Shown in pieces: positions 1 to 38,102 of a stretch of 64,000 nucleotides of DNA. Source of the DNA: Lentisphaerota bacterium (GTDB lineage: Bacteria; Verrucomicrobiota; Lentisphaeria; Victivallales; UBA1829). A model generated the notes under the pieces. The model saw only the letters and a program-made list of their open reading frames with translations. It made no database searches and was not told the DNA's origin. How positions within the stretch are numbered: the first letter of the stretch is position 1; the number at the start of each line of letters is the position of its first letter. The DNA is taken from contig SUVR01000001.1 in the NCBI GenBank assembly GCA_015061915.1, positions 7,976 through 71,975 on the forward strand. Reading direction: 5' to 3'. The translations under genes and the position numbers were made by a program.

Positions 1-266
1 TAATTCTGCAAACTTTCCTGCCCGATGATGGTGATCGTCCGGACCGGAGAATCCGCTTGCCAGCGCAATCTGCCGTCTTTTTCATAGATCATGCTGCCCT
101 GGATCGTGACCTGCATTTCCAGATCGGCGATCGTACGGATCTGAGTGTAATCCGCCGTGGTGACTTTAACTTTTTTCAGGGGCGCAAGACGCTCTGCCAG
201 CGGTTGGGCGGCAGGCAGAGAAACGCACAACAGAAGAAAGAAAACAGTCAGGATCAGAGTTCGCAT
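1..266 (-). CDS. LolA-like lipoprotein-carrier family protein, N-terminal 88 codons (gene runs off the left edge)
   Basis: Not in the ORF track because there is no stop in the window. Own translation from ATG at 266..264: MRTLILTVFFLLLCVSLPAAQPLAERLAPLKKVKVTTADYTQIRTIADLEMQVTIQGSMIYEKDGRLRWQADSPVRTITIIGQESLQN. This is a signal peptide followed by a LolA-like strand pattern. The start overlaps the end of the upstream gene (254), so it belongs to the same operon. Confidence 0.45.
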   Translation of the reverse strand, partial: MRTLILTVFFLLLCVSLPAAQPLAERLAPLKKVKVTTADYTQIRTIADLEMQVTIQGSMIYEKDGRLRWQADSPVRTITIIGQESLQN

Positions 267-1699
267 ATGGAAAGTTCTCCCGTGGCACAGACTGTGTCAT
301 CGGACGCCCGTTTGACTTTGAAATCCAGCGTGTGATAGTTGTCGATCTGACCCGATTCCCGGATGCAGATATGCAGCAGATCTCCGCTTCGCACCGGTTC
401 GATGAAACGGATGCTGCGGACTCCGGTCAGCATCCCGCCCAGATTGTGATCATTCTTTTCAAAGCCGGTAATGACGGCACACGCTTGTGCCACGATCTCC
501 GGCAGCGCTTCGTTGTCCAGAATCCCCGCTCCATTCAGGAAACGGTTGTCCGGCTTGATCTCCGACTCCACCACGCTCCATTCCGCAAATTCGATCAAAC
601 GGTCCACCATAGTCATCGGCGGACGATGCGGGATCCATTGCTGTGCATCGCAGGGGACGGGCGGTTTCTGCCGCAGCAGTTCGCTGTTGTGCCAGCAGAG
701 CGGATCGGAGGCAAGGTAGTCGCCGGTGAGCTGATACGCCGCACCCCGGCAGCCGTAACAGCTTTCCGCTTTTTCGCAAGTTTTGCACGGACCTTTGATC
801 GTGGACCGGAAGTCCCGCAGTTTCTGCAGCACCACACTGGTCTGAACGATCGTTGCCAGATCCTGTTCGTACACATTCCCGATCTTTACGGTCAGTCCCA
901 CGCAGGGGATCACATTCCCGTTGGCACCAACGACTGCCGAGAACTGATGCCGCATACATTTTGAACCGACCAGCGGCGGCTGCGGTTCCCAGTCATAGCC
1001 CTGTTCCCGGTCGAAGGCGGCGATCTCCTCAAAGATCTCTTTCAACCGTGCCGGTTCCACTTCCAGCTGACGGTTTTCCAGCAATCTGCCTTGCGGTGTC
1101 AGGATTTCCAGATAAGGTTTGATCCCGTTCCGGCGCAGATATTTCCACAGGTCCACCACTTCTTTTTCGTTGGCGGAACAGATCACGGAGCTGGCAACCA
1201 GTGTATTGGAATCGAAGCCCGCCTCTTTCAGCAGCGCAATGGCGTTCAGGGCTTTATCCAATGCCCCTTTCACACCGGTCAGTTCCTCCTGGATCTGCGG
1301 GTTCAGGGTATTCAGTTTGACCACGATCCGGCAGCCGTATTCGTGGAAAAATTCTGCCCATTCCTTTGTCATCAGGGCGGCATTGGTAAAGATTTCCGCC
1401 ACCATGCCGAGACTGGTGATCAGTTTGATCTTTTCCTTCAGTTCCGGATAAAGCATGGGTTCACCGCCGAGGATCACGATCTTCCGCGCCCCCAACGCAT
1501 TCGCCTGACGGATCACTTCATCCGCCTTTGCCGAATCCAGAAAAACATTGGTCACACCACCTGCCGCATAGCAGTAAGGACACCGGTAGTTGCAGGTGCG
1601 GTTGAACTCAATTTCAATGGTGAGGAGTCCCCGTTTTGAGGCGGTTTCCCGGATCTCCTCCATCGTAAAATCAAATTTATGTTTGTCAAAAGGGATCAT
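254..1699 (-). CDS. radical SAM/SPASM enzyme fused to a C-terminal FabA/FabZ-like hotdog (dehydratase) domain
   Basis: CNYRCPYCY (CxxxCxxC) sits near the N-terminus. A Cys-rich SPASM-like region follows (GPCKTCEKAESCYGCRGAAY...PLCWHN). The last ~130 aa start IPHRPPMTMVDRL, resembling the LPHRYPFLLVD start of FabZ-type hotdog dehydratases. Confidence 0.75.
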   Translation of the reverse strand: MIPFDKHKFDFTMEEIRETASKRGLLTIEIEFNRTCNYRCPYCYAAGGVTNVFLDSAKADEVIRQANALGARKIVILGGEPMLYPELKEKIKLITSLGMVAEIFTNAALMTKEWAEFFHEYGCRIVVKLNTLNPQIQEELTGVKGALDKALNAIALLKEAGFDSNTLVASSVICSANEKEVVDLWKYLRRNGIKPYLEILTPQGRLLENRQLEVEPARLKEIFEEIAAFDREQGYDWEPQPPLVGSKCMRHQFSAVVGANGNVIPCVGLTVKIGNVYEQDLATIVQTSVVLQKLRDFRSTIKGPCKTCEKAESCYGCRGAAYQLTGDYLASDPLCWHNSELLRQKPPVPCDAQQWIPHRPPMTMVDRLIEFAEWSVVESEIKPDNRFLNGAGILDNEALPEIVAQACAVITGFEKNDHNLGGMLTGVRSIRFIEPVRSGDLLHICIRESGQIDNYHTLDFKVKRASDDTVCATGELSICEL

Positions 1700-1702
1700 G
1701 AT

Positions 1703-2995
1703 TCACTCCTTGCGCAGATCAAAGAACCGGACCGGCTTGCGTGAGACTCCGAAGACCCGTTTGCGGGCGTCTTCTTCACTGACCCCGATCACCGGCACAT
1801 GGATCCTGGTCCGATTGTAAAGCTGTTCCCGGATGTTCAGACTTTCCACCGTATGCCCGGCTTTGCACGCAACGAACATACTGATCTCATCGGAAAGGGC
1901 GCTGCCGCTGACTTCCATGTAATATTCCGACACCCCGTCAATGCCGTCCAGCACATTGAAAAAGGCGCCGGGGAAAAGAGTTGTCCCGTGAACTTTCAGC
2001 ATCTGGGCTTTGCGTCCGAGGATCGGACCGAGACGCAGCGTGTTTCTGCCGCAGGAACATTTCTCCGGAATGATGAAGCTGATGTCGCCCGTCCGGAAAC
2101 GGACCAGCGGCATCCCGGAGACCTGCAGGGGAGTCACGGTCACTTCACCGGTCACGCCATCCGGTACCCGGTTTCCTTTTTCGTCCAGGATCTCCACGAT
2201 CGCCAGATCGGCGGGCGGGTGTCCGCCGCAACGGGCGGAACATTCCGTAAAGCTGGTGACGATCTCACTGGAGGCGTAAGTGGAATGGACCGCTCCCGGC
2301 CAGAATTCTTCCAGTTTCTGTCCCAGCGGAGTCAACTTCATATCGCGGGTCCGGATCGGTTCGCCGATGCAGACGATCCGTTTGACACAGCTGCCGTCGA
2401 TCCCGTTGTCTTTCAGATATTGTCCCAGTTTCGCAATGAAACTCGGAACCCCTACGATCCCTTCCGGATGGACCATGGAAAGAATCGAGGCGTGGCTGGC
2501 AATGGTGTTCAGTCCGTTCCGGACAGCGGACGCACCCACTTTGACCACGCCCTGATAGTACGCAAGCCCCGCAATGAAACAGCGGTCAATGGTGCAGGTC
2601 AGCAATACTTTATCCGTTGGGACCATCCCCGCAGCCTTGAACCCGACTGCATCGTTGTAGCCCAGGCGGTCCAGGTCACCGGCGGAATACACGATCCGGC
2701 AGGGATTCCCGGTCGTTCCGCTGGTGAAACAGATATCGGCGATCTGTTCTTCCGGTACGGCAAAAAATTCTTCGTTGTGTTCCGCAAGATCACTTTTGCT
2801 GGTGGTGGGCAGCTCCTGCAGGGAGTCATAGTCAAACACCTTATCCGGATCGAATCCGGCAAACCGTTTCCGGTAGAACGGGGAATTTTCCCGGCAGTAA
2901 CGGATATGTTCCGCCAGCAGACAGTCCTGTTCTTTCCGGATCTCCGCTGCGGGGAGAAAAGAAATATCATCCTTCAGTTCAAATTTTGTTTTCAT
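1703..2995 (-). CDS. PaaK / coenzyme F390 synthetase-like adenylate-forming acyl-CoA (or acyl-ACP) ligase
   Basis: TSGTTGNP adenylation motif, 430 aa, PaaK-like length and layout. There is a 3-nt gap to the next gene downstream. Confidence 0.75.
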   Translation of the reverse strand: MKTKFELKDDISFLPAAEIRKEQDCLLAEHIRYCRENSPFYRKRFAGFDPDKVFDYDSLQELPTTSKSDLAEHNEEFFAVPEEQIADICFTSGTTGNPCRIVYSAGDLDRLGYNDAVGFKAAGMVPTDKVLLTCTIDRCFIAGLAYYQGVVKVGASAVRNGLNTIASHASILSMVHPEGIVGVPSFIAKLGQYLKDNGIDGSCVKRIVCIGEPIRTRDMKLTPLGQKLEEFWPGAVHSTYASSEIVTSFTECSARCGGHPPADLAIVEILDEKGNRVPDGVTGEVTVTPLQVSGMPLVRFRTGDISFIIPEKCSCGRNTLRLGPILGRKAQMLKVHGTTLFPGAFFNVLDGIDGVSEYYMEVSGSALSDEISMFVACKAGHTVESLNIREQLYNRTRIHVPVIGVSEEDARKRVFGVSRKPVRFFDLRKE

Positions 2996-3783
2996 GACTT
3001 TTTCTCTTTCAGGAGTTCATCCATTTTTGCAAGTTCTTCTTCCATTCTGCGGAAAACGGTCTTTTTCAGGACAAATGCCGTGGCGCATTGCCGTACTTCC
3101 TCTGCCGGGATCGGGGTAAGACGCCGGATCAGCAGATCCCGGAACATACGGAAACGGAATTTCCGGTCCGGCATATATTCGTTGCCGGCGATACAAAGCA
3201 TATACACCGGCAATCCCAGATCCAGTGCGATCTTGAAGATCCCGCTGTGAAAGGCATTCATTTTTTCCGATTCGGACCGGGTTCCTTCAGGAAATGCCAC
3301 GATCACATCATTTTCTGCGATCACTTCCGCAGCATTTTTCTCCAATGTCTCAAAGTTCCAACCTGTGATGTCCAGATAACCGCCCAGTTTCGCTCCCCAA
3401 CCGATCACCGGCGCACGCATGGGCCAGCCGTTGACCGTCTGGGCGCAACTTTCTCCCATAACTGCCACCAGAAAAGCATCCGTTGCCGCCCGGTGATTGA
3501 CTACCACGATCCCCGGCGCACGATCCTTCCCGCATCCGGAAAGATCTTCGTAACGGACCCGGAAGAAGGGCAGCCACATGATCCGCACCATTGTCCAGCC
3601 GAACAGAAACAGCAGAAACCGCATAAAATGGCGGCGTTTGCTGCGGGGGAAAAGCAGGCTGATTCCCACCGGCAGCAGCATGGCGGTCCAGTAGAACGCA
3701 GTCCAGAAGACCGTCAGAAAATAGATCGGAAAGCTGCGGCAGAAGGTGGAAAGCGCAGATGATTTTTGCGGTTCACTGCTCAC
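2992..3783 (-). CDS. lysophospholipid acyltransferase (LPLAT/PlsC family), membrane-anchored
   Basis: NHRAATD (HX4D) and FPEGTRS motifs with hydrophobic N-terminal helices. 4-nt overlaps with both neighbours. Confidence 0.8.
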   Translation of the reverse strand: MSSEPQKSSALSTFCRSFPIYFLTVFWTAFYWTAMLLPVGISLLFPRSKRRHFMRFLLFLFGWTMVRIMWLPFFRVRYEDLSGCGKDRAPGIVVVNHRAATDAFLVAVMGESCAQTVNGWPMRAPVIGWGAKLGGYLDITGWNFETLEKNAAEVIAENDVIVAFPEGTRSESEKMNAFHSGIFKIALDLGLPVYMLCIAGNEYMPDRKFRFRMFRDLLIRRLTPIPAEEVRQCATAFVLKKTVFRRMEEELAKMDELLKEKKS

Positions 3784-4052
3784 AGTTTTTCTGCCAGTTC
3801 CGGATGTTCTGCAATGAGTTTTTCAAAAAGCGTGTAAACATCTTCCAGCGTCTTGACTTCCCGGATCTCTTTGTTTTCACGCAGCATGATCCCGAACTTC
3901 TGCTGAAGTCCTACGATCATATCCACAATATCCAGACTGTCCAGTCCAAGATCATCCAGAATGTGCTTTTCCGGTGTCAGGTCTGCTTCTTCAAATTCAA
4001 AACGCTCAATAAAAATTGAGTTCACTGCTTTCACGATCGCATCACGGTTCAT
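3780..4052 (-). CDS. dedicated acyl carrier protein
   Basis: 90 aa with the LGLDSLDIV phosphopantetheine-attachment motif. Confidence 0.85.
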   Translation of the reverse strand: MNRDAIVKAVNSIFIERFEFEEADLTPEKHILDDLGLDSLDIVDMIVGLQQKFGIMLRENKEIREVKTLEDVYTLFEKLIAEHPELAEKL

Positions 4053-4087
4053 CGTTTTTTCTCCTCAAAATGTATGTTATTCTTGTT

Positions 4088-5311
4088 TCAGTCAACAGAT
4101 TTACAGACCAGACTTGCATTCACACCGCCGAAGGCAATGCTGTTTTTGATACACACCCGTACTTTGTGATCCATCAGCTGACGGGGCAGCAGGATCCCTG
4201 CACAGTCATCCACCTGTTCCAGATTCCGGGTTGGCAGTACGATCCCGTTCTGCATCATCCCGTGGACCGCCGCAAGTTCCAATGCGCCGGATGCACCCAG
4301 CGTGTGACCGAGATGCCCCTTCAGACTGGAGACCGGAACTTTGTCGCCCAGAACGGATCGGATCGCCGCCGCTTCCGCTGCGTCGCCTACTTTTGTGCCG
4401 GTGGCGTGGGCGCTGACATAGTCCACATCTTCTGCATTGATCCCCGCATCGGCGAGGGCGGTACGCATACAGTTGGCGATCTGTACTTCATCGGAGTGGC
4501 TCACGTGCCAGCCGGAACAGTTTGTGGCGTATCCGGCAAGCTCAAAAAGAATATTGGCACCGCGGGCTTTGGCGTGTTCGTATTCTTCCACCACCAGAAT
4601 CCCTGCTCCTTCCGCACAGACAAGTCCTTCCCGGTTGGCGTCAAAGGGGCGTGCCAGCTTTTCCGGTTCCGGCGTTTCCCGTTCTGCCAGCGCATAAAGC
4701 AGCTGGAAAGAGGATGCCACAAGACTGGTCGTTTCATCCGAACCGCCGGAAATGACCACATCTGCCTTGCCGAGCCGGATCAGCTCCTGTGCCGCACCCA
4801 GGGCTTGAAGACCGGAGGCACAGGCGGAGCAGGGCGCGAGCTGGATCCCGTTGATCCCGAACATATCCGCCACATTGAACGCGGAAGAATGGCTCATCAA
4901 CCGGAAAAAGTGGCAGGCGGAAAGATCATCCCGTCTTCCCTCGGCTTCAGCGGTACAGGCATCCGTCATACTGGAGGCGCTGCCCACGGTGCTGCCGATA
5001 ACGCAAGCAACTCTGCCCGTGGTGAAAAGTGCCGGATCAAGACCGCTGCTCAAAACTGCTTCCTGCGCCGCAAGTCCCGAAAACAATGCCGCATTGCCCA
5101 TTGTCCGGCGGACTTTCCGGTTGATCTTTTTGACCTGGACCGGATCCACACTCACCGGTGCATTGGCAATGTTTTTTCCGAAATGATCATACCATTCCGG
5201 CATGGCACGGACTCCGGAACGGTTCGCAAGGAGAGCCTCCCAAAGTTCTTTTACCGAGTTCCCCAGCGGGCTGATGACCCCGATCCCTGTTACAACTGCG
5301 CGTCTGTTCAT
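4088..5311 (-). CDS. beta-ketoacyl-ACP synthase (FabF/FabB-like KS), catalytic triad intact
   Basis: CSACASG active-site Cys, HATGT and GHTLGASG His motifs. Confidence 0.85.
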   Translation of the reverse strand: MNRRAVVTGIGVISPLGNSVKELWEALLANRSGVRAMPEWYDHFGKNIANAPVSVDPVQVKKINRKVRRTMGNAALFSGLAAQEAVLSSGLDPALFTTGRVACVIGSTVGSASSMTDACTAEAEGRRDDLSACHFFRLMSHSSAFNVADMFGINGIQLAPCSACASGLQALGAAQELIRLGKADVVISGGSDETTSLVASSFQLLYALAERETPEPEKLARPFDANREGLVCAEGAGILVVEEYEHAKARGANILFELAGYATNCSGWHVSHSDEVQIANCMRTALADAGINAEDVDYVSAHATGTKVGDAAEAAAIRSVLGDKVPVSSLKGHLGHTLGASGALELAAVHGMMQNGIVLPTRNLEQVDDCAGILLPRQLMDHKVRVCIKNSIAFGGVNASLVCKSVD

Positions 5312-5368
5312 AGATTTTCTGTCTGCAATTTTTGCGTATGTTATTTTATTTTTACTTTACAAAAACAA

Positions 5369-5396
5369 AATATACTGTAAAAACAGAAAAAATCAA
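5369..5396 (-). promoter_or_regulatory. candidate internal sigma70-like promoter inside the lipid cluster
   Basis: On the minus strand: TTGATT (5396..5391), 16-nt spacer, TATATT (5374..5369). It lies in the only AT-rich gap (5312..5424) of an otherwise tightly packed operon. Confidence 0.35.
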
Positions 5397-5424
5397 GGCG
5401 TGATAAGACATAGTATGGATTTTT

Positions 5425-6912
5425 TCAGAGAAAACGGCGGATCAAACCGGTGTAGATGTCTTCTCCCAGCACCTGACGGAAAACGGAAAAAGAGGCAAGC
5501 ATCGTTCCCATGACACCCGGTACCAGCGCACTTTGTCCCGCCGCAAAAAAGTTGGAGACCGGCAGCTGACCGCAGATCCGTGCCTGACCGCAGATACATC
5601 TTGCGCCGTAGGCACTTCCGGTGGGCGGATCGTAGTCCAGACAAGTCCACGGGCTGCCGCTGGCAACCACATGAAGTTTTCCCTTCAGCGCAGGGTGGAC
5701 CGCTTCGATCTCTGCCGCTGCTTCCTGCACCATCGCCGCCTTGAATGTCTGATACGCTTCATCGTTCTGCCGTTCCCGGTGAGTGGCAGAAAATCCCTGC
5801 GGCATCCCTTCAAAACGCATCGTCCGGAATGCAGAGACCGTATGACGCAGGACGCCGGTCCGATCCGTTTCCCGGTTGAACAGGATCCCGGTGCTGTGAG
5901 CGCGGGTGCCGTCGGTCAGAATGTGATCGATATCGTTGCCGGAAAAATAGGAGACCAGCCCTTCCGGTACCGCTTCGTCGGCGGTAAAATAGGAACAGAA
6001 AAAGCTGCAGGATTCTTTCAGACGCCGGATCCGCCGTTCGTGGGACGGCGTTTTTGCTTCGTCCGGCAGAACATTCTGGATCGCAAGGGGATGCGTTGTG
6101 AAGAAAATATGTTCCGCATCCAGTGTTGTGCCGTCGGAAAGGCGGACTTCATGGCAAGCACCGTCGGAATCGGGAGCGGTGAATTTCAGCAGTTCCGTAC
6201 CGGTCCGGATGTCGATCCCGTACCTTTCCGCTTCCCGTTTGAAGGCGCGGATCATGGCATCACCGCCATCGTCCGGACGGGCGAGATCGGTGTGCAGGGC
6301 GTACCCCACCCGTGCGTGAAAACTCATTGGTGCTTCCGAAAGGGGCGTGCCGTGACACATGGCAAAAGATCCGGTACAGGCCGTTGCTGCCGGAGAAAGT
6401 CCCAGAGACTGACAGATCTCTCCCGCAGTCGTGAGATCATATCGGGAAAAATCGGGTGTCAATGGCGAAAGATCCCGCAGATCGTGCATGGGAGTCGTAT
6501 CCCAGATCTCCTGTTCGATCCGGAAAAATTCCCGGATCTTTTCCGCTTCATCCGGAAACGCATTGCAGCAGGCTTCCGCCGCTCCGGTATGACCGCAATC
6601 CGCCGGGAGCAGGATCTCTTTCCCGCTTTCGGCAAGTACGATCCGGTTGGAAATCGGGGTGCTGCCGACTGCATCGGACAGCCCCAGCACCTGCATCATC
6701 TGTTCCATTATTCCGTTCCGGCTGAATCCGCCTGAAAAATGATAGCCCGTATCGAAGGGGATCCCGTTCCGGTAAAAACGCCGCAGATAGCCGCCGATCT
6801 CCGGCTGACTTTCAATCAGCGTCACCGGTCTGCCGGACCGGGCAAGAAGCAGGGCAAGGGTCAAGCCGCCGGCTCCGGAGCCGCAGACAATATTGGTCCG
6901 TTCCCGCCGCAT
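5425..6912 (-). CDS. FAD/NAD(P)-dependent oxidoreductase, phytoene desaturase (CrtI)-like family
   Basis: N-terminal dinucleotide-binding fold IVCGSGAGGLTLALLLARSG. 495 aa, CrtI-like length. Confidence 0.7.
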   Translation of the reverse strand: MRRERTNIVCGSGAGGLTLALLLARSGRPVTLIESQPEIGGYLRRFYRNGIPFDTGYHFSGGFSRNGIMEQMMQVLGLSDAVGSTPISNRIVLAESGKEILLPADCGHTGAAEACCNAFPDEAEKIREFFRIEQEIWDTTPMHDLRDLSPLTPDFSRYDLTTAGEICQSLGLSPAATACTGSFAMCHGTPLSEAPMSFHARVGYALHTDLARPDDGGDAMIRAFKREAERYGIDIRTGTELLKFTAPDSDGACHEVRLSDGTTLDAEHIFFTTHPLAIQNVLPDEAKTPSHERRIRRLKESCSFFCSYFTADEAVPEGLVSYFSGNDIDHILTDGTRAHSTGILFNRETDRTGVLRHTVSAFRTMRFEGMPQGFSATHRERQNDEAYQTFKAAMVQEAAAEIEAVHPALKGKLHVVASGSPWTCLDYDPPTGSAYGARCICGQARICGQLPVSNFFAAGQSALVPGVMGTMLASFSVFRQVLGEDIYTGLIRRFL

Positions 6913-6916
6913 CGGA

Positions 6917-7654
6917 TCAGATCACCAGACCGCCGTTGACGGCGATCACCTGACCGTGGATATACGTGCTGTCCGGTCCGCAGAGAAAACTCACGGTTCC
7001 GGCGATTTCCGCCACTTTCCCGGTCCGGTGCAGGGGGATCAGGGGCAGGATCTGATCTTTCGGAAGATCTTTGGTCATATCGGTTTCGATCACGCCGGGA
7101 GCAACCACGTTCACAAGGACGCCTTTTCTGCCTACTTCACGGGCAAGTGCCTTTGCTGCACCGATCAACGCCGCTTTCGTGGCGGAATAGTTCACCTGAC
7201 CTGCCTGTCCGGTCTGACCGGAGGCGGAACTGATAATGACCACCCGCCCGCGACGCTTTGCCAGCATCCCGAAGACCAGCGGCTGGACCGTATTGTAAAA
7301 TCCGTTCAGATTGGTATCCAGCACGCTTTCCCATTCGTTGTCATCCATAAACACGAAAAGGTTGTCTTTGGCGATCCCGGAGTTGTAAACGACCACATCC
7401 GGCGGATTTTCTGTGGGGAACGTTTCAGCCAGAACGGTCCGTGCCGCCGCCCGGTCGCAGACATCCAGTTCCAGAATATTGCAACACCCGCCTGCAGCGG
7501 TGATCGCTTCGACCAGCGCAGCAGAATCTGCACCCTGTTTCCGGCAGGTCGCAGTGACTTCAAATCCATCTTTTGCAAGGCGTTCCGAAATTGCCTTTCC
7601 GATTCCCCGGCAACCGCCGATCACGAGAGCTTTTCTGCTGTTTTCTGCTGTCAT
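6917..7654 (-). CDS. 3-oxoacyl-ACP reductase (FabG-family SDR)
   Basis: 245 aa short-chain dehydrogenase. Contains GGCRGIG cofactor loop, NYSATKAAL (YxxxK) and FabG-like C-terminus IHGQVIAVNGGL. Confidence 0.85.
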   Translation of the reverse strand: MTAENSRKALVIGGCRGIGKAISERLAKDGFEVTATCRKQGADSAALVEAITAAGGCCNILELDVCDRAAARTVLAETFPTENPPDVVVYNSGIAKDNLFVFMDDNEWESVLDTNLNGFYNTVQPLVFGMLAKRRGRVVIISSASGQTGQAGQVNYSATKAALIGAAKALAREVGRKGVLVNVVAPGVIETDMTKDLPKDQILPLIPLHRTGKVAEIAGTVSFLCGPDSTYIHGQVIAVNGGLVI

Positions 7655-7676
7655 TTCAGTTTATCCTTCTATTTGA

Positions 7677-8933
7677 TCACTCTGTATATTTTTTGAAGAT
7701 GAGGGCGGCATTGTGTCCACCGAAACCGAGACTGTTGCTGAGGATGAATTCCGGATCTGCCTGACGCGCAATGTTCGGAGTGACATCCAGATCACATTCC
7801 GGGTCCGGTGTGGTGTAATTGATCGTGGGCGGTACAAGCCCGGTCTCAGCCGTTTTTACGCAGGCGACTGCCGCCAGTGCGCCCGCCGCTCCCAAGGCGT
7901 GTCCGATCATACTTTTGACTGCACTGACTGCGATTTTATCCGCATGAGCGCCGAAGACTGCCCGGATGGCTTTCGTTTCGCATTTGTCATTGGCTATTGT
8001 GCCGGTTCCGTGAGCGGAGATACAGGTAATATCCTCCGGTCTGCATCCTGCGTGAGCGATTGCCATTTGCATCGCCCGGATGTCGCCGGTACCTTCGGGA
8101 TCGGGGCTGGTGATGTGCCAGGCGTCGCAGGTCGCACCGTATCCGATCAGTTCTGCCAGAATGGTTGCACCCCGTTGTTTTGCGTGTTCCAGCTCTTCCA
8201 GTACCAGCAGGGCGGCACCTTCTGCGATCACGAAGCCGTCCCGGTTCAGATCAAAGGGTTTACAGGCTTTTTCCGGTTCTCCGTTCTGAAGGCTGAGTGC
8301 CGTCAATGCAGCGAAACCGCCGGTCAGGAGACGGGTCACACAAGTTTCTGAACCGCCGGCCAACATCAGATCGGCATCGCCCCGTTTGATCTGCCAGAAG
8401 GCTTCCCCGATGGCGTGTGAGGAGGAAGCACAGGCGGAGGATACGCTGAAATTCGGACCTTTCAGCCCGAAACGGATCGCCACGGATCCGGAAGCGGTAT
8501 TGGTGATATAGGACGGCACAAAAAAGGCGGAAAGCCCGCTTCCCCGTGCCAGTGCCGCTGCGTTTTTGTCATAGACTTCCACCCCGCCAGCACCGGATGA
8601 GATCAGAGCACCTGCACGGAATGGGTCCGGCAGAGTGATTTTTGCCGTTTCTGCATCCAGCAGTTTTGCTTGCGTCAGGGCTTCGTGTGCGGCAGCAATG
8701 GCAAAGCGTGTGAACCGGGCGGTGCGCCGTTCTTCTTTCACGGTCATGCCCGGCACAACCAGATCCCGCACTTCTCCGGCAATGGTCACCGGCAGTTTCG
8801 GTTCCGGTTCAAAAAGGGAGATCTGCCGGATCCCGCTTCTGCCGTGGGACAGAGTCTCCCACAGTTCCTGCACGGAATTTCCGCCGCAGCTTACTGCGCC
8901 CATACCGGTAATGACGATCCGCCGTTCTTTCAT
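7677..8933 (-). CDS. beta-ketoacyl-ACP synthase (FabF-like KS), catalytic triad intact
   Basis: SSACASSSHAIGEA, HGTGT and GHALGAAG motifs. I place the start at MKERRIVITGMG (ATG 8933), which forms an ATGA overlap with the stop of the upstream hydrolase gene. The ORF-track start 9008 is an extension. Confidence 0.85.
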   Translation of the reverse strand: MKERRIVITGMGAVSCGGNSVQELWETLSHGRSGIRQISLFEPEPKLPVTIAGEVRDLVVPGMTVKEERRTARFTRFAIAAAHEALTQAKLLDAETAKITLPDPFRAGALISSGAGGVEVYDKNAAALARGSGLSAFFVPSYITNTASGSVAIRFGLKGPNFSVSSACASSSHAIGEAFWQIKRGDADLMLAGGSETCVTRLLTGGFAALTALSLQNGEPEKACKPFDLNRDGFVIAEGAALLVLEELEHAKQRGATILAELIGYGATCDAWHITSPDPEGTGDIRAMQMAIAHAGCRPEDITCISAHGTGTIANDKCETKAIRAVFGAHADKIAVSAVKSMIGHALGAAGALAAVACVKTAETGLVPPTINYTTPDPECDLDVTPNIARQADPEFILSNSLGFGGHNAALIFKKYTE

Positions 8934-9889
8934 ATTTCTTCTTCTCTCTTTCCATCGTGGTTGAGGATCTTCTGTTCCTGCAGAAATTTCAGCAATTCTC
9001 CGGACCACGCCGCCGTTTCGGGATAAAGCTGTTTTTGTTTTTCATTCAGGAGTCCCATTCCGTGGGGACCGTGCTGAAAGATCAATGTCTTATGGGGGAT
9101 ATTATGTTTTTTCAATGCTGCATCCATCTGTTTTCCGTTTTCCGGATCAACGCATTGGTCTTCCAGTGTCAGCCACAGAAAAGTGGGTGGGAAACCGGGT
9201 GCGACCTGTTTTTCGAGGGAAAGAGCATCTATTTGTTCCGGGGTCGGATTGCTTCCCAGCAGATTGCTCCGGCTGGTCTTGTGGGCAGCTGTATCCATGG
9301 TAACGACCGGATAGCACATGATCACAAAGTCCGGTTTGGCGGAAAACCGTTTGACCGGATCTGCGGCATCTTTTTCACCTTCCGTATTGCCCAGTGCGGT
9401 CAGCGCGGCAAGGTGTCCTCCTGCCGATGAACCCATCGTGCCGACTTTCGCAGGATCAATGTTCAACGCCTTGGCATGAATACGGATCAGCCGCACCGTA
9501 TGTTGTGCCGCCTGCTGCATGGCGGGGTGTCGCCGGAAATGACCGAAGATCGAGCCCAGCGGATATTTGACTACGATCCCTGCAACGCCGTTCGCCGCAA
9601 GAAATTTTGCATATTCCGTCCCTTCCACATGGAAATCCAGCACCCCGTACGCTCCGCCGGGGAATATGATTGCCGCCGGTACGGGCTTGGTTGTTTTTGC
9701 CGGCAAAAAGATCTGAAGCGCACAGAACCAGTCGTCATCATACAAGTGATATGTTTTTTTACCGGGTTGATGCTTTGCTGCGTTTGCGATTTCGAATGTC
9801 GGTTCATCGGGCAGGACAAAGAGAAAACAGCCGGAAAGCAGCAGGAGTGCAGCTGCACAGAAAAAAAGACTGACCCATTTCCGACTCAT
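8930..9889 (-). CDS. alpha/beta-hydrolase (esterase/lipase-like) lipoprotein
   Basis: Signal peptide with lipobox LLLLSGC. GSSAGGH nucleophile elbow (GxSxG). Confidence 0.7.
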   Translation of the reverse strand: MSRKWVSLFFCAAALLLLSGCFLFVLPDEPTFEIANAAKHQPGKKTYHLYDDDWFCALQIFLPAKTTKPVPAAIIFPGGAYGVLDFHVEGTEYAKFLAANGVAGIVVKYPLGSIFGHFRRHPAMQQAAQHTVRLIRIHAKALNIDPAKVGTMGSSAGGHLAALTALGNTEGEKDAADPVKRFSAKPDFVIMCYPVVTMDTAAHKTSRSNLLGSNPTPEQIDALSLEKQVAPGFPPTFLWLTLEDQCVDPENGKQMDAALKKHNIPHKTLIFQHGPHGMGLLNEKQKQLYPETAAWSGELLKFLQEQKILNHDGKREEEI

Positions 9890-9915
9890 ATTTGTCCGTA
9901 TATTTTGTGTTCGTA

Positions 9916-10413
9916 TTACAGTTCTGTTACGCCGTCGTCGATCAGATACGGCATCTCCTCGTGGACCGTCGTATTGCCGGAGATCACTTTTGTATCCAGT
10001 TTGATATATTTGATCGTGCCGTCTGCCAGTACGGTCCCTTCCATATCCATAAGCTGGGATTCCACTACCACAAAACGGCTGGTCTCCCGCACAACCACAC
10101 CCTTTGCGATCAGGTCAGTTGCGTAGGGGACCGGCTTGCGGTAGTTTGTGGTCAGGTTGATGGTGACACCGAAATCTTTTTCTTCGCCGCCGTGATATGC
10201 CCAGAGTCCCCGCAGTCCCAGTTCATCCAGCATGGCAGTGATCAGCCCGCCGTGAACACGCCCCGGATAACTCTGGTGATTCGGGTGATACTGAAATTTC
10301 GTCATTACGCTGCCGTCTTCCATGTTGTAAAAAGCGGCACGCACACCGAATTCATTGTCAAGTCCGCAAATAATGCACATTTTACTGTTGCGCTGTCTGC
10401 TCAAAACTTTCAT
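9916..10413 (-). CDS. PaaI/4HBT-family hotdog thioesterase
   Basis: HGGLITAMLDE motif. Start set at MKVLSRQ (ATG 10413) with AAGGAG 8 nt upstream. This is the first gene of the minus-strand cluster. Confidence 0.75.
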   Translation of the reverse strand: MKVLSRQRNSKMCIICGLDNEFGVRAAFYNMEDGSVMTKFQYHPNHQSYPGRVHGGLITAMLDELGLRGLWAYHGGEEKDFGVTINLTTNYRKPVPYATDLIAKGVVVRETSRFVVVESQLMDMEGTVLADGTIKYIKLDTKVISGNTTVHEEMPYLIDDGVTEL

Positions 10414-10552
10414 TTGCTGCTCCTTGTTCCGGTAAAGATTATTTTTCTGTAATTTATAGCAAAAAAAAGAAAAGTCAAGGCTTGAACCGGGGCGGATCAC
10501 GGTTTAAAGTAATGCGTGAACACAAAAGGAAATTACCCGAAGGAGATTTTTT

Positions 10553-11776
10553 ATGGATAATACCCGCCTCAAAGCCTATGCCGAATTGATCGTGAAGAAG
10601 GGGCTTAACCCCGATCCCGGTCAGGAAGTGATCATTCTCGCCGCTCTGGATCAGCCGGAATTTGTGCGGCTGGTCGCTGAAGAATGTTACCGTGCCGGTG
10701 CCGCAAAAGTTACTGTGGATTGGCAGGATATGCCCCTGAACAAGTTGGCGCAGCTCTATCAGACTGAGGAAAAACTCGGATCCATCGAGGATTGGGAGAT
10801 CGAAAAACTCAAGTGGCGCGTGGAAAAACTGCCCGCTTTTCTCTGGCTGGATTCCGATGATCCGGACGGCATGGACGGCATTGATCAGGGCAAGCGTGCC
10901 CGCGCTCAGATGGCTCGTTTCCCGAAGATCAAACCTTACCGCGATGCCATGGAAAACCGCTTTCAGTGGTGTATCGCCGGAGTCCCCGGAAAGGAATGGG
11001 CGTGCAAAGTCTTCCCCGGTATTTCTGCGGAGGAGGCTGTGGAAAAACTGTGGGAAGCGATCCTGACCACCGCCCGCGCGGAAGGGGATCCCATCGCCAA
11101 CTGGGAGGAACACAACCGGGTCATCCACGAGCGCTGCAGCGCCCTGAACGACTATAAGTTTATCGCACTGGAGTATCAGAGCAGCAACGGCACGGATTTC
11201 CGTGTCGGACTGATGGAGCAGGGCATCTTTGCCGGTGGCGCGGAAAAAGATCTTTCCGGACGCATCTTTAACCCGAACATCCCCTCCGAAGAAATCTTCA
11301 CCAGCCCGAAACGGGGCGAGGCGGAAGGGGTGCTTGTCTCTACGAAACCCCTTTCCTGGCAGGGCAGCCTGATCGAAAACTTTTCCATCCGGTTCGAGAA
11401 GGGGAAAGCCGTGGAGGTCAAAGCGGAGAAAGGGCAGGAAGCGTTGGAACGGATGATCGCCATGGATGAGGGCGCGGCGTATCTGGGCGAATGTGCCCTC
11501 ATCGGCTGGGATTCCCCCATCAACCGGACCGGGATCCTCTTTTACAGCACCCTTTACGACGAAAACGCCAGCTGTCATGTGGCGCTGGGACGCGGCTTTG
11601 AAAACTGCGTTGCCGATTACGACAAGTACAGCCAGGAACAGCTCCGCGCCATGGGCGTCAACGACAGCATGATCCATGTGGACTTTATGATCGGCTGTCG
11701 GGATCTCAATATCACCGGGATCACAGCCGACGGACGGAAGATTCCCGTCTTCCGGTTCGGCGAATGGTGTTTCTGA
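10553..11776 (+). CDS. M29-family aminopeptidase (AmpS/PepS-like)
   Basis: 407 aa. The N-terminus MDNTRLKAYAELIVKKGLNPDPGQEVII is typical of aminopeptidase T/S family proteins. Confidence 0.75.
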   Translation: MDNTRLKAYAELIVKKGLNPDPGQEVIILAALDQPEFVRLVAEECYRAGAAKVTVDWQDMPLNKLAQLYQTEEKLGSIEDWEIEKLKWRVEKLPAFLWLDSDDPDGMDGIDQGKRARAQMARFPKIKPYRDAMENRFQWCIAGVPGKEWACKVFPGISAEEAVEKLWEAILTTARAEGDPIANWEEHNRVIHERCSALNDYKFIALEYQSSNGTDFRVGLMEQGIFAGGAEKDLSGRIFNPNIPSEEIFTSPKRGEAEGVLVSTKPLSWQGSLIENFSIRFEKGKAVEVKAEKGQEALERMIAMDEGAAYLGECALIGWDSPINRTGILFYSTLYDENASCHVALGRGFENCVADYDKYSQEQLRAMGVNDSMIHVDFMIGCRDLNITGITADGRKIPVFRFGEWCF

Positions 11777-12823
11777 TCAGGAAACAGTCCAGCGGCAGTA
11801 ATTCAGTTCTGCGCTCATTCCGTTGTGTTCATACCAGAGCGTAAAGAATGTGCCGTCCGGCATTTCGACGGTGGAAGGATATCCGAGATCTCTGTTCAGC
11901 CCACGGTCATGGATGATCCATTCTTCTCCCCAGGTTTTGCCGCCGTCTGCTGAAAACATTGCCCGGACACCGAATGGTTCTTTGCGCCAGCCGTATGTCA
12001 TGAGCAGATTCCCGTTTCGGGTACGCTGCAGGAATGAAGGAAAACCGTCGCAGATGTAATGCGGTTCACTCCATGTCGCACCGCCATCCATTGATTCCGT
12101 CTGCCATGTCCGTGTAATACATTCCTCTTTTCTGCAGGCGCGGATCTGGACAATGAGATCCCCGTTTTCCGTTTCCGCCGCATGAAGTTCGTGACAATTC
12201 GCATTTTCGTGTTCCGGCGGCGGTGGGATCTGCCCGATGATCTGCCAGGTTTTGCCGTTATCATCGGAAATACTGGCTGCCATTTCCGGTTTCATCATTG
12301 CCGAATCGACCGGATAATAGGAGTGTACTTTTCCGGGCATGAAAAGACGACCGCTTTTCAACAGGACCGGTCCGTGGGGATTGTTGACGGCGGTCCGGTA
12401 TTTTTCGCTCCAGGTCAACCCGTTATCCGTGGAGCGACGCATCCACAGACCATGTTCATCCCGCAATGTTTCGAGTGAAATACTGCGTGCAACCACATCC
12501 CATGGATGGGGTTTTCCCCATTTTTCCAGAATGGTGGCAACACTGGTGAAGTAGTTGACCAGAATTGAGCCGTCTGCTGCAATACAGATTCCCGCATCCC
12601 GGTCATCCAGTGGCCCCTGACTCAGAAATTCCGGAGCGGTCCAGGTTTCTCCACCATCCTTGGAACGATAGAAAAATACGCGTCCGTATGGACACATGTG
12701 TCCTTCCCGGTTTCCGGAGCAGACGGCGAGCAGTTCGCCGCTTTCCGTAATTGCCACGGTTGGCCAGCCGTGATAGGTTGGATTCAATGTGATTTTTCCG
12801 GTTTTGAGCTTTTTTACATTCAT
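11777..12823 (-). CDS. BNR/Asp-box repeat protein, sialidase-like (GH33-like), no signal peptide seen
   Basis: Five SxDxGxTW Asp-boxes: SKDGGETW, STDNGLTW, SDDNGKTW, SMDGGATW, SADGGKTW. Confidence 0.7.
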   Translation of the reverse strand: MNVKKLKTGKITLNPTYHGWPTVAITESGELLAVCSGNREGHMCPYGRVFFYRSKDGGETWTAPEFLSQGPLDDRDAGICIAADGSILVNYFTSVATILEKWGKPHPWDVVARSISLETLRDEHGLWMRRSTDNGLTWSEKYRTAVNNPHGPVLLKSGRLFMPGKVHSYYPVDSAMMKPEMAASISDDNGKTWQIIGQIPPPPEHENANCHELHAAETENGDLIVQIRACRKEECITRTWQTESMDGGATWSEPHYICDGFPSFLQRTRNGNLLMTYGWRKEPFGVRAMFSADGGKTWGEEWIIHDRGLNRDLGYPSTVEMPDGTFFTLWYEHNGMSAELNYCRWTVS

Positions 12824-12941
12824 TTTTTTATCTCCTGTTTGAAAGATGAATGGTTGGATGCTATTGTAACTTTAGGTCGCCGGAATGTTGTTTTCAATCA
12901 TACGGAAAAGTTATTGATCATACAAACAGGAACAAAAATAT

Positions 12942-13790
12942 ATGAATCTCTCGGAAGACAGAGATAAGATTGTTTCAGTATTGGAAAAAATCCTTTCAGA
13001 CCGTCCGCTGAACGCTTTCCGTTTTGCGGAACACTATATCGGGAACGGGGATGTGTCCGATGCCGTTATCCTGCCCATTCACCGTCTGACCTGTGTATTG
13101 GATGGGCAATTTTGTTTGAAAGTCGGCAGCGGCAGGCAGATCACGCAGGAAGTTTATTCTGCCGGAACGACATTGATGATGCGTCCGTTCTGTACGACGG
13201 CTTTCGCACCGGGGAGTTGCTGCGAAGCGTTCGGCCTTGTCTGCCGTCCCGGATTTTTACGGATCTTTTACTGCGAAGCAGAGGATGGCAGGCATTATTT
13301 TTATCACTTGAAGGATACGCTCCGCACCAGTACACACCATGCCCTTTCCGCCCTGTTCCATTTGCAAGATGACCGGGACTCCCGAAGTACGATGTCCGAC
13401 TTGCTGTATCTGGTTTTTACGCTCTTGAAAGAAGACCTGAAACGATCCCGGATCTGCGATTGCGGAAAATCCTTCCAGTTGTGGTGCCGGATCTCCGAGC
13501 GGTTGGAAGAATATTATGATGCCGATCCGACACGCAGCGAACTTGCCGCAGAATTTGAGGTGACAGAAACGTATATTTCCAGACTGTTCCGGCGGTATGC
13601 CGGTACGACATTCAAAGAATATCTGCGTCTGATACGGTTGAAAAAATCAGAACGTCTGCTGAATGAAACGAATCTGACAGTCAGTGAGATCGCATGGCAG
13701 TGCGGATTTCATTCCACCACTTATTTCATCCGCAGTTTCCGGTCGGTCCATCATGTTTCGCCCGGTCATTACCGGCGGCTGAAAAAATAA
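12942..13790 (+). CDS. AraC-family transcriptional regulator
   Basis: C-terminal double-HTH region (TETYISRLFRRYAGTTFKEYLRLIRLKKSERLL...IAWQCGFHSTTYFIRSFR). Confidence 0.85.
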   Translation: MNLSEDRDKIVSVLEKILSDRPLNAFRFAEHYIGNGDVSDAVILPIHRLTCVLDGQFCLKVGSGRQITQEVYSAGTTLMMRPFCTTAFAPGSCCEAFGLVCRPGFLRIFYCEAEDGRHYFYHLKDTLRTSTHHALSALFHLQDDRDSRSTMSDLLYLVFTLLKEDLKRSRICDCGKSFQLWCRISERLEEYYDADPTRSELAAEFEVTETYISRLFRRYAGTTFKEYLRLIRLKKSERLLNETNLTVSEIAWQCGFHSTTYFIRSFRSVHHVSPGHYRRLKK

Positions 13791-13856
13791 AAAACACACT
13801 TGAAAAAATAACAGGTGCGTACTATTTTAGAAGAGAAACTCAACAGGAGAGTAAAT

Positions 13857-14714
13857 ATGAAAACAAAAAAAATGATCGTGGGCGTCCTTTCCGGCTTCGG
13901 TCCGGAACTGGAAAATCCCTTCACAAAGATCGTGGGTCACGGCGTTGATGTGACCCAGGTGTGCAACTGGAAGGTCGATCTGTGGACCAAAGAAAACGCA
14001 AAGAAGATCAAGAAGTATGCGAAGGACAGCAAGATCCGGATCAACTCGTTCTGGTCCGGCTATACCGGTCCTGCCGTCTGGAACTTCATTGAAGGTCCCA
14101 CCACCCTCGGTCTGGTTCCCCCCGAATACCGGAAACAGCGCATCGCCGACCTGAAGAAGGGCGCAGACTTTGCCGAAATGATCGGCGCTCCCGCTATCGT
14201 GACCCATTGCGGTTTCATCCCGGAATATCCCGCCGACCCCCTGTATCAGGGCACGCTGGATGCCATCGGCGAAGTGGCGGAATACTGTAAGAAAAAAGGT
14301 CTCGGCTTCTGGTTTGAAACCGGGCAGGAAACGCCCACCACCCTGCTGCGTGTCATCGAAGATCTGGCACTGGATAACCTGGGGATCAACTTCGATACCG
14401 CAAATGTGATCCTTTACGGAAAAGCAAACCCGCTGGACGCTCTGGATGTCTTCGGCAAGTACGTGCGCTGTCTCCACGCCAAGGACGGTATGTACCCCAC
14501 CAACGGACGCAACCTCGGTCACGAAGTGCCCGTCGGCAAGGGCAAGAGCCAGTACAGCAAACTGATTCCGAAACTGAAAGAGATCGGCTACGAAGGCGAC
14601 CTGATCATCGAACGGGAAATCGGCGGCGAACAGCAGACCAAAGACATCATGAAGACCATCGTCTATCTGCGGAAACTGGTCGATAAAGCCGAAGCCAAGT
14701 ACGCGGCGAAATAA
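13857..14714 (+). CDS. sugar phosphate isomerase/epimerase (xylose isomerase-like TIM barrel)
   Basis: Family-typical layout. Start moved to ATG 13857 (MKTKKMIVGV) behind AGGAG. Confidence 0.7.
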   Translation: MKTKKMIVGVLSGFGPELENPFTKIVGHGVDVTQVCNWKVDLWTKENAKKIKKYAKDSKIRINSFWSGYTGPAVWNFIEGPTTLGLVPPEYRKQRIADLKKGADFAEMIGAPAIVTHCGFIPEYPADPLYQGTLDAIGEVAEYCKKKGLGFWFETGQETPTTLLRVIEDLALDNLGINFDTANVILYGKANPLDALDVFGKYVRCLHAKDGMYPTNGRNLGHEVPVGKGKSQYSKLIPKLKEIGYEGDLIIEREIGGEQQTKDIMKTIVYLRKLVDKAEAKYAAK

Positions 14715-14728
14715 GAGAAAGACATCAG

Positions 14729-14932
14729 GCGGGAAAAACCTTTCAGGAAAGGTTCTTTTCCCGCACCCTTTTTCCAAAGATTTTTACAGCGAAAGAGCAA
14801 AACGCAGTTTTTGCTCTTTCGCATTTTTTATACGCAGATAAAAAATGCGAAGCACGGAGTGAACACTCCGTGCTTCGCTGCAGAAGTCTTTGAGGGGGTG
14901 CCGGGGAAGCTTTCTTCAGAAAGTTCCCCGGC
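14729..14932. terminator. stack of four or five GC-rich stem-loops at a convergent gene junction
   Basis: Hairpins at about 14729..14764, 14789..14822 (14-bp stem), 14847..14878 (14-bp stem) and 14900..14932. CGCATTTTTTAT/ATAAAAAATGCG forms a bridging pair between the second and third hairpins. Confidence 0.6.
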
Positions 14933-14946
14933 AGAATCCCCTTCTC

Positions 14947-16296: not shown

Positions 16297-16324
16297 AGTT
16301 TTTTTCTCCTTGTGGTTTCATTAT

Positions 16325-17614: not shown

Positions 17615-17778
17615 AGGAATATTCCTTTCGTGCTGTATTATATACGCCGGATCGTTGAGAATCAATAGCAAAATTATGTGAAACATCAAAAAAATGTGCG
17701 GAATATGGAAAAAAGTTGAAAAATCCCGTTGAAAACTGCGGAAAAAATCTTACATTATGAGAAAATGAAAGGATTTTT

Positions 17779-37598: not shown

Positions 37599-38102
37599 TT
37601 GTCTGTTCTTTTTCGTTAAATTGACTACCTGCTATGCTGATGTCACACGGCGCAGCAAATGCCGATGACCCGTCTCCGGATACGCCACGCGTCAAACAAA
37701 ACTTCCGCAGGCAGGAATACAGAAAGTACCCGGCCGGTCCGATTTTTCTGCCGTGTTATCAACATACTACAATGTACCACCAAAGAGCGTTTTTCTCAAG
37801 TGTTTTTCTGAAAATTTTTTACAAATATTTTTTCAAAACCCTCTTGACGCTGACGGAAGGTATTAGAAACTGCAGATTTAGCAAAAAATGTGCTGAAATG
37901 ACTTTTTGAAAAACGGTTGGAATCGGAATGCAGTAACGTCAAAAGTCAAGTCGATTTTTGAAAAAATATGGAAAATATTTTCGTTGTGCTGAAAAAAAAA
38001 TTTTTCCAAAGAGATACGTCAAAAAAACGCCACTTCAGAACAAGTTGTTTACCTTTCGATAATGATTCTTATTTGCGTTGTATTTGGCAGTTTTGGCAGA
38101 TT
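37599..38102. other. candidate replication origin (oriC) / dnaA upstream region
   Basis: This is the longest and most AT-rich non-coding stretch in the window (about 500 bp), directly upstream of dnaA. It has one near-consensus DnaA box TTATCAACA (37756..37764). Repeated motifs are TGTGCTGAAA (37889, 37985), ACGTCAAAA (37936, 38016) and TTTTTGAAAAA. Confidence 0.45.

Follow-up and report, generated by a model that had tools for sequence, protein, structure and literature searches.

A radical SAM/SPASM protein fused to an ApeP-like hotdog domain in an aryl-polyene-type operon of a Lentisphaerota bacterium

The 64,000-nucleotide stretch of DNA analyzed here (the window; positions 7,976 to 71,975 of contig SUVR01000001.1, assembly GCA_015061915.1, from a Lentisphaerota bacterium) carries at 254..1699 on its minus strand a gene for a protein that joins a radical S-adenosylmethionine (SAM) core, a SPASM region, and a C-terminal hotdog domain. 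Judging from its motifs and predicted fold, the hotdog domain is quite probably the ApeP-type half of a heterodimeric dehydratase and not a self-sufficient FabZ. The proposal as a whole, that the fusion tethers a radical SAM/SPASM module to the dehydratase of its pathway and acts on a chain held by an acyl carrier protein (ACP), is one that we consider slightly favored, and any specific chemistry for the radical SAM module is considerably less certain than that. An initial annotation of this DNA had predicted an open reading frame (ORF) of 481 amino acids at these positions without giving a strand, and translation of the window reproduced it exactly on the minus strand, with an ATG start and a stop codon at 254-256.

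The fusion protein, its hotdog domain, and a partner

The fusion gene and its parts are as follows.

254..1699, minus strand: complete fusion gene, radical SAM/SPASM/ApeP-like hotdog (ORF list, translation, Pfam, AlphaFold2 (AF2))
1004..1624, minus strand: radical SAM core, residues ~26-232 (Pfam, invariant residues, Foldseek)
1571..1594, minus strand: CX3CX2C motif binding the SAM-cleaving [4Fe-4S] cluster, C36/C40/C43 (sequence CNYRCPYC)
686..958, minus strand: SPASM domain, residues 248-338, with two predicted auxiliary [4Fe-4S] clusters (Pfam, seven cysteines)
635..685, minus strand: linker SELLRQKPPVPCDAQQW, residues 339-355, with the invariant P349 (translation, alignment)
257..634, minus strand: ApeP-like hotdog domain, residues 356-481 (AF2, Foldseek, phmmer, invariant residues)

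The CxxxCxxC radical SAM core and the cysteine-rich SPASM region named in the initial annotation were both borne out, the former by the motif CNYRCPYC together with a Pfam match to Radical_SAM (PF04055) at residues 30-184 (E=7.6e-24, 85.2 bits against a cutoff of 29.5), and the latter by a full set of seven cysteines together with a match to SPASM (PF13186) at residues 248-309 (E=1.2e-9, 38.7 bits against a cutoff of 21.5). The SAM-binding GGE motif corresponds to G78 G79 E80 in the radical SAM core. Because the seven-cysteine SPASM pattern is complete (C248-x12-G261-x4-C266; C305-x2-C308-x5-C314-x2-C317; C335), the protein is expected to hold two auxiliary [4Fe-4S] clusters besides the SAM cluster. 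Across 41 orthologues sharing 45-74% identity, C36/C40/C43, the GGE motif, and the seven SPASM cysteines were invariant. By these profiles and motifs, the fusion is assigned to the radical SAM superfamily and the SPASM subfamily with no named equivalog; none of the NCBIfam radical SAM/SPASM equivalogs reached its cutoff, all 25 listed families falling far below. The best NCBIfam similarities were to GeoRSP rSAM (124.8 bits, cutoff 400), AhbD, and NirJ2 (~110-125 bits against 400-500), with further sub-cutoff similarities to PqqE and the sactipeptide maturases. AF2 returned a single confident model of the full-length protein (pLDDT 92.7, pTM 0.91), for which Foldseek matched SkfB, SuiB, CteB, PqqE, and anSME with E values of 1e-12 to 1e-14.

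The hotdog domain opens with IPHRPPMTMVDRL (residues 356-368), and this segment and the preceding linker, both quoted in the initial annotation, are present in the translation. When modeled alone, the domain adopted a single hotdog fold (AF2 pLDDT 94.6), as had been predicted. Foldseek against the PDB ranked 6qsr_B, from the ApeI:P heterocomplex of Xenorhabdus, first (TMq 0.78), followed by dozens of FabZ structures (TM 0.75-0.83), and phmmer against the PDB likewise gave 6qsr_B as the best sequence match, with the common motifs PH..PM, FLN..G.L, and E..AQA. The PH motif (H358) is invariant, as are E401 and Q405 of the central helix, which occupy the positions of the catalytic Glu and Gln of FabZ and are retained even in distant relatives and in the pseudo-radical-SAM fusions described below. 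The catalytic His of the FabZ GHFP motif is absent, with 'NGAG' at that place in the phmmer alignment, and FabZ-type active sites as a homodimer are therefore impossible for this domain. Thus, the earlier description of a FabZ-like hotdog holds for the fold and gives way, for the function, from a complete FabZ to an ApeP-like half; similarly, the 'PHR-P' motif proposed as dehydratase-like is a conserved N-terminal FabZ/ApeP motif that does not hold the catalytic His. Of the catalytic His/Glu pair to which the initial annotation drew attention, the hotdog has the Glu (E401), and the His is carried by an ApeI-like protein. The cluster contains no other ApeP/FabZ-type gene besides the fused hotdog.

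This ApeI-like protein, of 128 amino acids, is encoded ~3.5 kb downstream of the fusion on contig L082 (ENA), which is 100% identical to window 1..11699 (L082 11699..1) and runs 8 kb past the left edge of the window. It carries FDGHFEGNPVVPGV with the catalytic His and has Gln at the position of the FabZ Glu. Among sequences from related loci, the GHF His was invariant (52/52), and the Glu-equivalent position varied (Q in 26, E in 12, others in 14); the gene was present in 50 of the 59 loci having at least 5 kb of downstream sequence. ApeI and ApeP are described as a heterodimeric dehydratase with one active site, the Acinetobacter ApeI being fused to the ligase ApeH, and the complementary His/Glu pattern of the partner and the hotdog is the pattern described for that pair (PMC8041823). 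These observations strongly suggest that the fusion hotdog and the ApeI-like protein would together make up a heterodimeric 3-hydroxyacyl-ACP dehydratase whose one active site is a composite of both. Independent support for this predicted pairing is provided by proteins of 290-300 amino acids that join ApeP-like and ApeI-like domains (P0162 and P0183, about 291-296 aa).

A sequencing or assembly frameshift joining two genes, a caveat of the initial annotation, has next to no probability, being ruled out by the recurrence of the identical 481-aa protein in ENA, JGI, and Logan assemblies (at least 23 independent contigs), by the orthologues, and by the single AF2 model. More than 120 clusters at 90% identity, ~480 aa in length, contain the same three domains, and a second search with a distant orthologue as the query yielded at least another 120 clusters. 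In a survey with one genome per GTDB species, 530 species genomes matched, and the fusion was full length in 76 of the best 80 of these 530 loci. Its hosts include Lentisphaeria/Victivallales, Kiritimatiellia, Verrucomicrobiota, Nitrospirota, Geobacteraceae, other Desulfobacterota, and Brocadiia metagenome-assembled genomes (MAGs), along with two cultured strains that carry the full-length fusion, Victivallis vadensis DSM 14823 and Oligosphaera ethanolica DSM 24202; a Lentisphaeria MAG from water-deer caecum is 92-97% identical to the window. The architecture is thus widespread in sequence databases, under generic 'radical SAM/SPASM' labels, and is not rare. No second copy of the fusion, intact or pseudo, was found within the same loci. 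As the initial annotation had supposed, no characterized protein with this architecture was found in the full-text literature open without subscription, nor among the enzymes of a 2026 review of lipid-modifying radical SAM enzymes (PMC13459092), and NCBIfam holds no equivalog.

Counted over the loci with enough flanking sequence, the conserved neighbors of the fusion were the AMP-binding ligase (56/60), an acyltransferase (56/60), an ACP (57/60), a ketosynthase (KS; 47/55), an RND transporter (57/59), a LolA-like protein (50/59), and a ketoreductase (KR; 31/49). Whether the fusion always sits in KS/ACP clusters, as the initial annotation had asked, is therefore answered in the affirmative for nearly every genome examined and not for all of them.

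Natural variants and the role of the radical SAM module

When 1.8 billion representatives were searched with only the hotdog domain as the query, 450 relatives were obtained, among which the slot of the fusion in the operon is filled in several ways. A standalone 139-aa ApeP-like protein (P0126), 40% identical, lies between the AMP-ligase and LolA, where the fusion would otherwise be found. Pseudo-radical-SAM fusions of similar length (11 representatives of 50%-identity clusters) show a deletion of the CX3CX2C loop and a degraded GGE motif, with all seven SPASM cysteines kept in 9/11 and the hotdog P/H/E/Q invariants kept in all; they sit upstream of LolA or in a compact FabG/CrtI-like/KS/ACP/pseudo-fusion cassette. 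Across these variants the hotdog is therefore the constant element, and the radical SAM module is an add-on, lost or disabled in some lineages. This pattern also suggests that the Fe-S/hotdog core may have a function independent of SAM cleavage. Other ApeP-like fusions comprise combinations with a lysophospholipid acyltransferase (LPLAT-ApeP and LPLAT-pseudo-rSAM/SPASM-ApeP) and an rSAM-SPASM-ApeP-LolA protein, and such repeated joining of neighboring gene products would be expected for parts of one complex.

Further observations concern these relatives. The pseudo fusions include P0131, P0152, P0160, P0164, P0166, P0168, P0177, P0221, P0231, and P0193, with loci at L085, L088, L089, and L090; among the other ApeP-like fusions, P0191 has 389 aa, P0193 has 717 aa, and P0184 has 720 aa. 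In an unbootstrapped, midpoint-rooted neighbor-joining tree, which serves as a qualitative guide, fused and pseudo-fused hotdogs grouped together, separate from most of the standalone ApeP-like and ApeP-ApeI didomain proteins. C479 (nt 263..265), three residues from the C-terminus, was kept in at least 90% of close orthologues, and most distant and pseudo relatives have Trp at that position. Victivallales MAGs also encode a hotdog-less radical SAM/SPASM paralogue of 345 aa, 57% identical to fusion residues 4-340 (L058 9998..11035 and L076 3923..4933), which lies outside any lipid cluster; in L058 it adjoins an ion-channel gene, an FAD oxidoreductase, and an AraC regulator, neighbors that offer no functional clue.

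In the mechanism that we propose, the hotdog would supply E401 and the ApeI-like protein the catalytic His of a composite dehydratase site, and the radical SAM/SPASM module would be held at this dehydratase, where the ACP would deliver the growing chain. A 5'-deoxyadenosyl radical could then abstract hydrogen from an ACP-tethered beta-hydroxy or enoyl/polyenoyl intermediate, the two auxiliary clusters handling the second electron. SPASM/twitch enzymes typically draw on their auxiliary clusters to finish a two-electron oxidation or a cross-link, and for this reason the favored outcome would be an O2-independent two-electron oxidation (desaturation or dehydrogenation) or the formation of a C-C bond by cross-linking or cyclization, possibly in concert with the CrtI-like flavoenzyme, which is conserved alongside the fusion. 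The acyltransferase and glycosyltransferase (GT) would then receive the product, and the LolA-like protein and the RND transporter would export it to the outer membrane. A further reading, possible although on balance doubtful, is that the fusion is the signature enzyme of an undescribed O2-independent route by which a polyketide or fatty-acyl chain is modified during its assembly. The module carried by the dehydratase would desaturate each ACP-bound enoyl intermediate, or a specific one, by radical chemistry, or would form a C-C ring or a cross-link on it, and the outcome would be a new class of outer-membrane lipid or pigment. If true, this would mean new lipids or pigments in the anaerobic members of the Planctomycetota-Verrucomicrobiota-Chlamydiota (PVC) group, Nitrospirota, and Desulfobacterota, and V. 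vadensis and O. ethanolica would be a tractable entry to such chemistry.

Several points weigh against this proposal. In contrast to Radical_SAM and SPASM, for which the Pfam calls upheld the predicted domains above their cutoffs, the ApeP-like family (PF22817) at residues 352-462 reached 16.2 bits against a gathering cutoff of 27 (E=0.0079), and the sequence similarity of the hotdog to PDB entries is weak (best E=0.0014). Only 33/49 loci have the CrtI-like gene alongside the fusion. Lineages with the standalone ApeP-like protein or a pseudo fusion indicate that SAM cleavage is not required for the core of the pathway to operate; the radical step would therefore be accessory, or the domain would also have a non-radical role. 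Finally, the substrate of the radical SAM domain is one that we infer entirely, and radical chemistry on an ACP-tethered chain is, as we infer it, plausible. The precomputed Pfam column of the protein database lists PF22817 for almost all orthologues.

One alternative, which we regard as unlikely, is that the hotdog is a non-catalytic recruitment module that binds acyl-ACP, with dehydration left to other enzymes such as a housekeeping FabZ. The peptide-modifying SPASM enzymes have recruitment modules of this kind in their RRE domains (recognition elements for RiPPs, peptides made by the ribosome and then modified post-translationally), the nearest structural relatives of the N-terminal part use accessory binding domains on protein- or peptide-borne substrates, and the canonical FabZ catalytic His is missing from the hotdog. 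However, a mere docking domain does not account for the invariance of E401 and Q405 out to the distant and pseudo relatives, for the His-bearing, Glu-variable ApeI-like partner in 50/59 loci, or for the standalone ApeP-like protein that takes the same slot elsewhere, and the cluster is without another dehydratase.

The pseudo fusions bear on a second alternative, in which the N-terminal part would be an Fe-S redox or scaffold module, either an electron relay for the CrtI-like enzyme or a stabilizer of the dehydratase, with radical chemistry vestigial or secondary. Their retention of the seven SPASM cysteines (9/11) and the hotdog invariants in the same operon context is what such a module would predict, as is the existence of the compact FabG/CrtI-like/KS/ACP/pseudo-fusion cassette. 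In the intact fusions, by contrast, CX3CX2C and GGE are invariant in the 41 orthologues down to 45% identity and the Pfam Radical_SAM match is strong; this invariance points to purifying selection that maintains SAM binding and cleavage, and we consider a purely redox or scaffolding role rather improbable.

A protein- or peptide-modifying SPASM maturase, whether a RiPP enzyme or a modifier of the ACP, KS, or ApeI, is very improbable, even though the closest solved structures (SkfB, SuiB, CteB, PqqE, and anSME) and the best NCBIfam similarities (GeoRSP, PqqE, and sactipeptide maturases, all far below their cutoffs) belong to such enzymes: no family cutoff is reached, an RRE-like domain is lacking, and the conserved neighborhood is wholly lipid/polyketide machinery. 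With a 3-nt gap upstream and a 13-nt overlap downstream leaving no adjacent space for a precursor-peptide ORF, the RiPP form of this reading was rejected.

The operon and its surroundings

Besides the fusion, the following genes of the operon lie within the window.

3..266, minus strand: 5' part of a LolA-like (ApeL-like) gene, cut by the window edge (Pfam LolA E=4.3e-4 on an 88-aa fragment)
1703..2995, minus strand: AMP-binding acyl-ACP/CoA ligase, ApeH/FlxY-like (Pfam AMP-binding)
2992..3783, minus strand: lysophospholipid-type acyltransferase, ApeD-like (Pfam Acyltransferase)
3780..4052, minus strand: acyl carrier protein with the DSL serine present, LGLDSLD (Pfam PP-binding)
4088..5311, minus strand: ketosynthase with an intact Cys-His-His triad (Pfam, motifs, PDB phmmer)
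5425..6912, minus strand: CrtI/phytoene-desaturase-like FAD oxidoreductase of the amine-oxidase family (Pfam Amino_oxidase and NAD_binding_8; weak NCBIfam CrtD/CrtI)
6917..7654, minus strand: FabG/ApeQ-like ketoreductase (Pfam adh_short_C2, KR)
7677..9008, minus strand: FabF-type ketosynthase (Pfam; NCBIfam fabF 510.8 bits, above cutoff)
8930..9889, minus strand: BD-FAE/alpha-beta hydrolase (Pfam)
9916..10500, minus strand: 4HBT hotdog thioesterase, first gene of the operon (Pfam 4HBT, L082 gene table)

The ligase, whose match to NCBIfam FlxY (417 bits) lies below the cutoff of 520, is directly upstream of the fusion, and the LolA-like gene overlaps the end of the fusion by 13 nt. The left edge of the window cuts the operon inside the LolA-like gene, which has 203 aa in full in L082, and the cluster continues in L082 11434..19505 with, in order, the LolA-like gene, a 977-aa RND/MMPL-like transporter, the ApeI-like gene, a 4HBT thioesterase, a KS, a 201-aa protein without an assigned function, and a protein combining GT2, DUF2062, and a lipid-A-type acyltransferase; the cluster of a close relative has one more ACP and KS. 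For the KS at 4088..5311, the closest solved relative is the A. baumannii 3-oxoacyl-ACP synthase 7f27_A (E=4.3e-90), and the downstream KS matches 6qsp_A, the ishigamide KS 6kxd, and 7f28_B, among others. We take 7f27 and 7f28 to represent the aryl polyene (APE) system of A. baumannii and 6qsp that of X. doucetiae. The three KS examined retain Cys-His-His, with no chain-length factor among them (a fourth KS lies further downstream, on L081), and the start of the FabF-type KS is probably internal to the ORF at 7677..9008 (418 aa in the L082 gene call). Neither Pfam nor NCBIfam revealed an enoyl reductase in the cluster over the window and the L082 extension.

The gene set thus co-locates KS(s), ACP, KR, the ApeI- and ApeP-type components, AMP-ligase, LPLAT, GT/acyltransferase, thioesterase, and the LolA-like and RND proteins, without an enoyl reductase, and by its gene content the operon is classed as an aryl-polyene/flexirubin-type type II polyketide synthase (PKS) cluster plus a CrtI-like flavoenzyme.

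An ORF at 10475..11677 (minus strand, 400 aa) was considered as a further operon gene and rejected, being without a Pfam or NCBIfam match and overlapping a plus-strand Peptidase_M29 gene, called in L082 at window 10553..11776; it is probably a shadow ORF, and the operon probably starts at the 4HBT gene near 10500. Beyond it, window 11777..17689 encodes a BNR/sialidase-like protein, an AraC regulator, a xylose-isomerase-like TIM-barrel protein, a GH4 glycosidase, and a melibiase-family protein, a carbohydrate-degrading neighborhood of the kind typically found in gut Lentisphaeria, with no apparent relation to the lipid operon. A second 481-aa ORF, at 36153..37598 on the minus strand, was considered as a paralogue of the fusion and rejected (BLASTP E=1); it is dnaA (Bac_DnaA, DnaA_C, DnaA_N). 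The cumulative GC skew has its minimum at ~32-36 kb in the window, and a replication origin may lie near dnaA. Scanning with the E. coli DnaA-box consensus found no cluster of boxes beside dnaA; only one near-consensus E. coli-type box (37756) lies in the gap 37599..38102 adjoining it.

Comparison with known systems

With the SPASM/twitch enzymes (anSME, PqqE, SuiB, CteB, SkfB, and AhbD/NirJ), the fusion shares CX3CX2C, the seven cysteines, and the fold, and it differs from them in its C-terminal hotdog and PKS/fatty acid synthase (FAS) operon and in being without an RRE or a peptide context. Radical SAM enzymes that act on carrier-protein-bound chains during elongation are rare, the Jaw5-type cyclopropanases being the main precedent. 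With FabZ, the hotdog of the fusion shares the fold, the N-terminal LPHRxPxxLVD-type motif, and the central-helix Glu/Gln, whereas the GHFP catalytic His of FabZ is replaced by 'NGAG'. The nearest counterpart, ApeI:P (X. doucetiae, PDB 6QSR; A. baumannii ApeH-ApeI/ApeP), resembles the fusion in having PH..PM and the E..AQA helix and in lacking the GHFP His, and ApeH-ApeI sets a precedent for fusing a dehydratase half to a pathway enzyme (PMC8041823); the characterized ApeP is without the 340-residue N-terminal radical SAM/SPASM module, and its identity to the hotdog is only about 21-23%.

Few bacterial biosynthetic gene clusters are as widespread as those of the APE type; the present variant, associated with anaerobes, is set apart by its fusion of a radical SAM enzyme to a dehydratase domain and by its CrtI-like flavoenzyme. 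Mapped with the E. coli ape gene table (PMC8253772), and set beside the APE/flexirubin/xanthomonadin clusters (E. coli apeA-R; Chitinophaga flx), the present inventory contains counterparts of ApeD, ApeE/F, ApeH/FlxY, ApeI, ApeJ (GT plus lipid A-type acyltransferase), ApeK (4HBT), ApeL (LolA), ApeM (RND), and ApeQ (KR), together with several KS. Relative to the APE clusters, the radical SAM/SPASM module, the CrtI-like FAD oxidoreductase, and the BD-FAE hydrolase are added here, and no ApeB methyltransferase, ApeA, ApeG, or aryl-starter enzyme (TAL, XanB2) was seen. Unlike the APE comparison systems, the hosts of the fusion-type cluster belong to strict-anaerobe lineages.

A second likeness is to the FASII-like 'ladderane/PUHC' clusters, which Rattray et al. 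(2009, PMC2649909) describe for anammox bacteria (Kuenenia stuttgartiensis, kuste3335-3352) and Desulfotalea psychrophila, report also in Geobacter and Pelobacter, and propose for anaerobic polyunsaturated lipids or ladderane precursors. They comprise the same set as here, namely one or more SAM radical proteins, a phytoene-dehydrogenase-like protein, a phenylacetyl-CoA-ligase-like protein, a large membrane protein, a GT, FabF paralogues, and ACPs (PMC2649909); this likeness is one of the enzyme set by description, and Kuste3342/3343 and DP1853/1855 are candidate orthologues of the fusion. For the Kuenenia locus tags, the literature found was limited to the two papers already known. Within the searched text of the ladderane-cluster papers, a hotdog domain on the radical SAM proteins is not mentioned, and heterologous expression of the Kuenenia radical SAM genes is reported to have failed (PMC4790861). 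Fully syntenic fused orthologues are present in Geobacteraceae, Deltaproteobacteria, and Brocadiia MAGs, and among the top 120 matches to the orthologue from a 'Brocadiaceae' MAG, none bore a Kuenenia label and all names were generic. We know of no ladderane production in Lentisphaeria.

Clusters with this same set have been invoked since 2006-2009 for the biosynthesis of ladderanes and anaerobic polyunsaturated lipids. The variants with a standalone protein, an intact fusion, and a pseudo fusion permit product comparison across the three types, and the two cultured carriers make reconstitution possible. The probable identity of the hotdog as an ApeP half, its conserved partner and context, and these natural variants make the question of the reaction and product of this cluster type directly testable.

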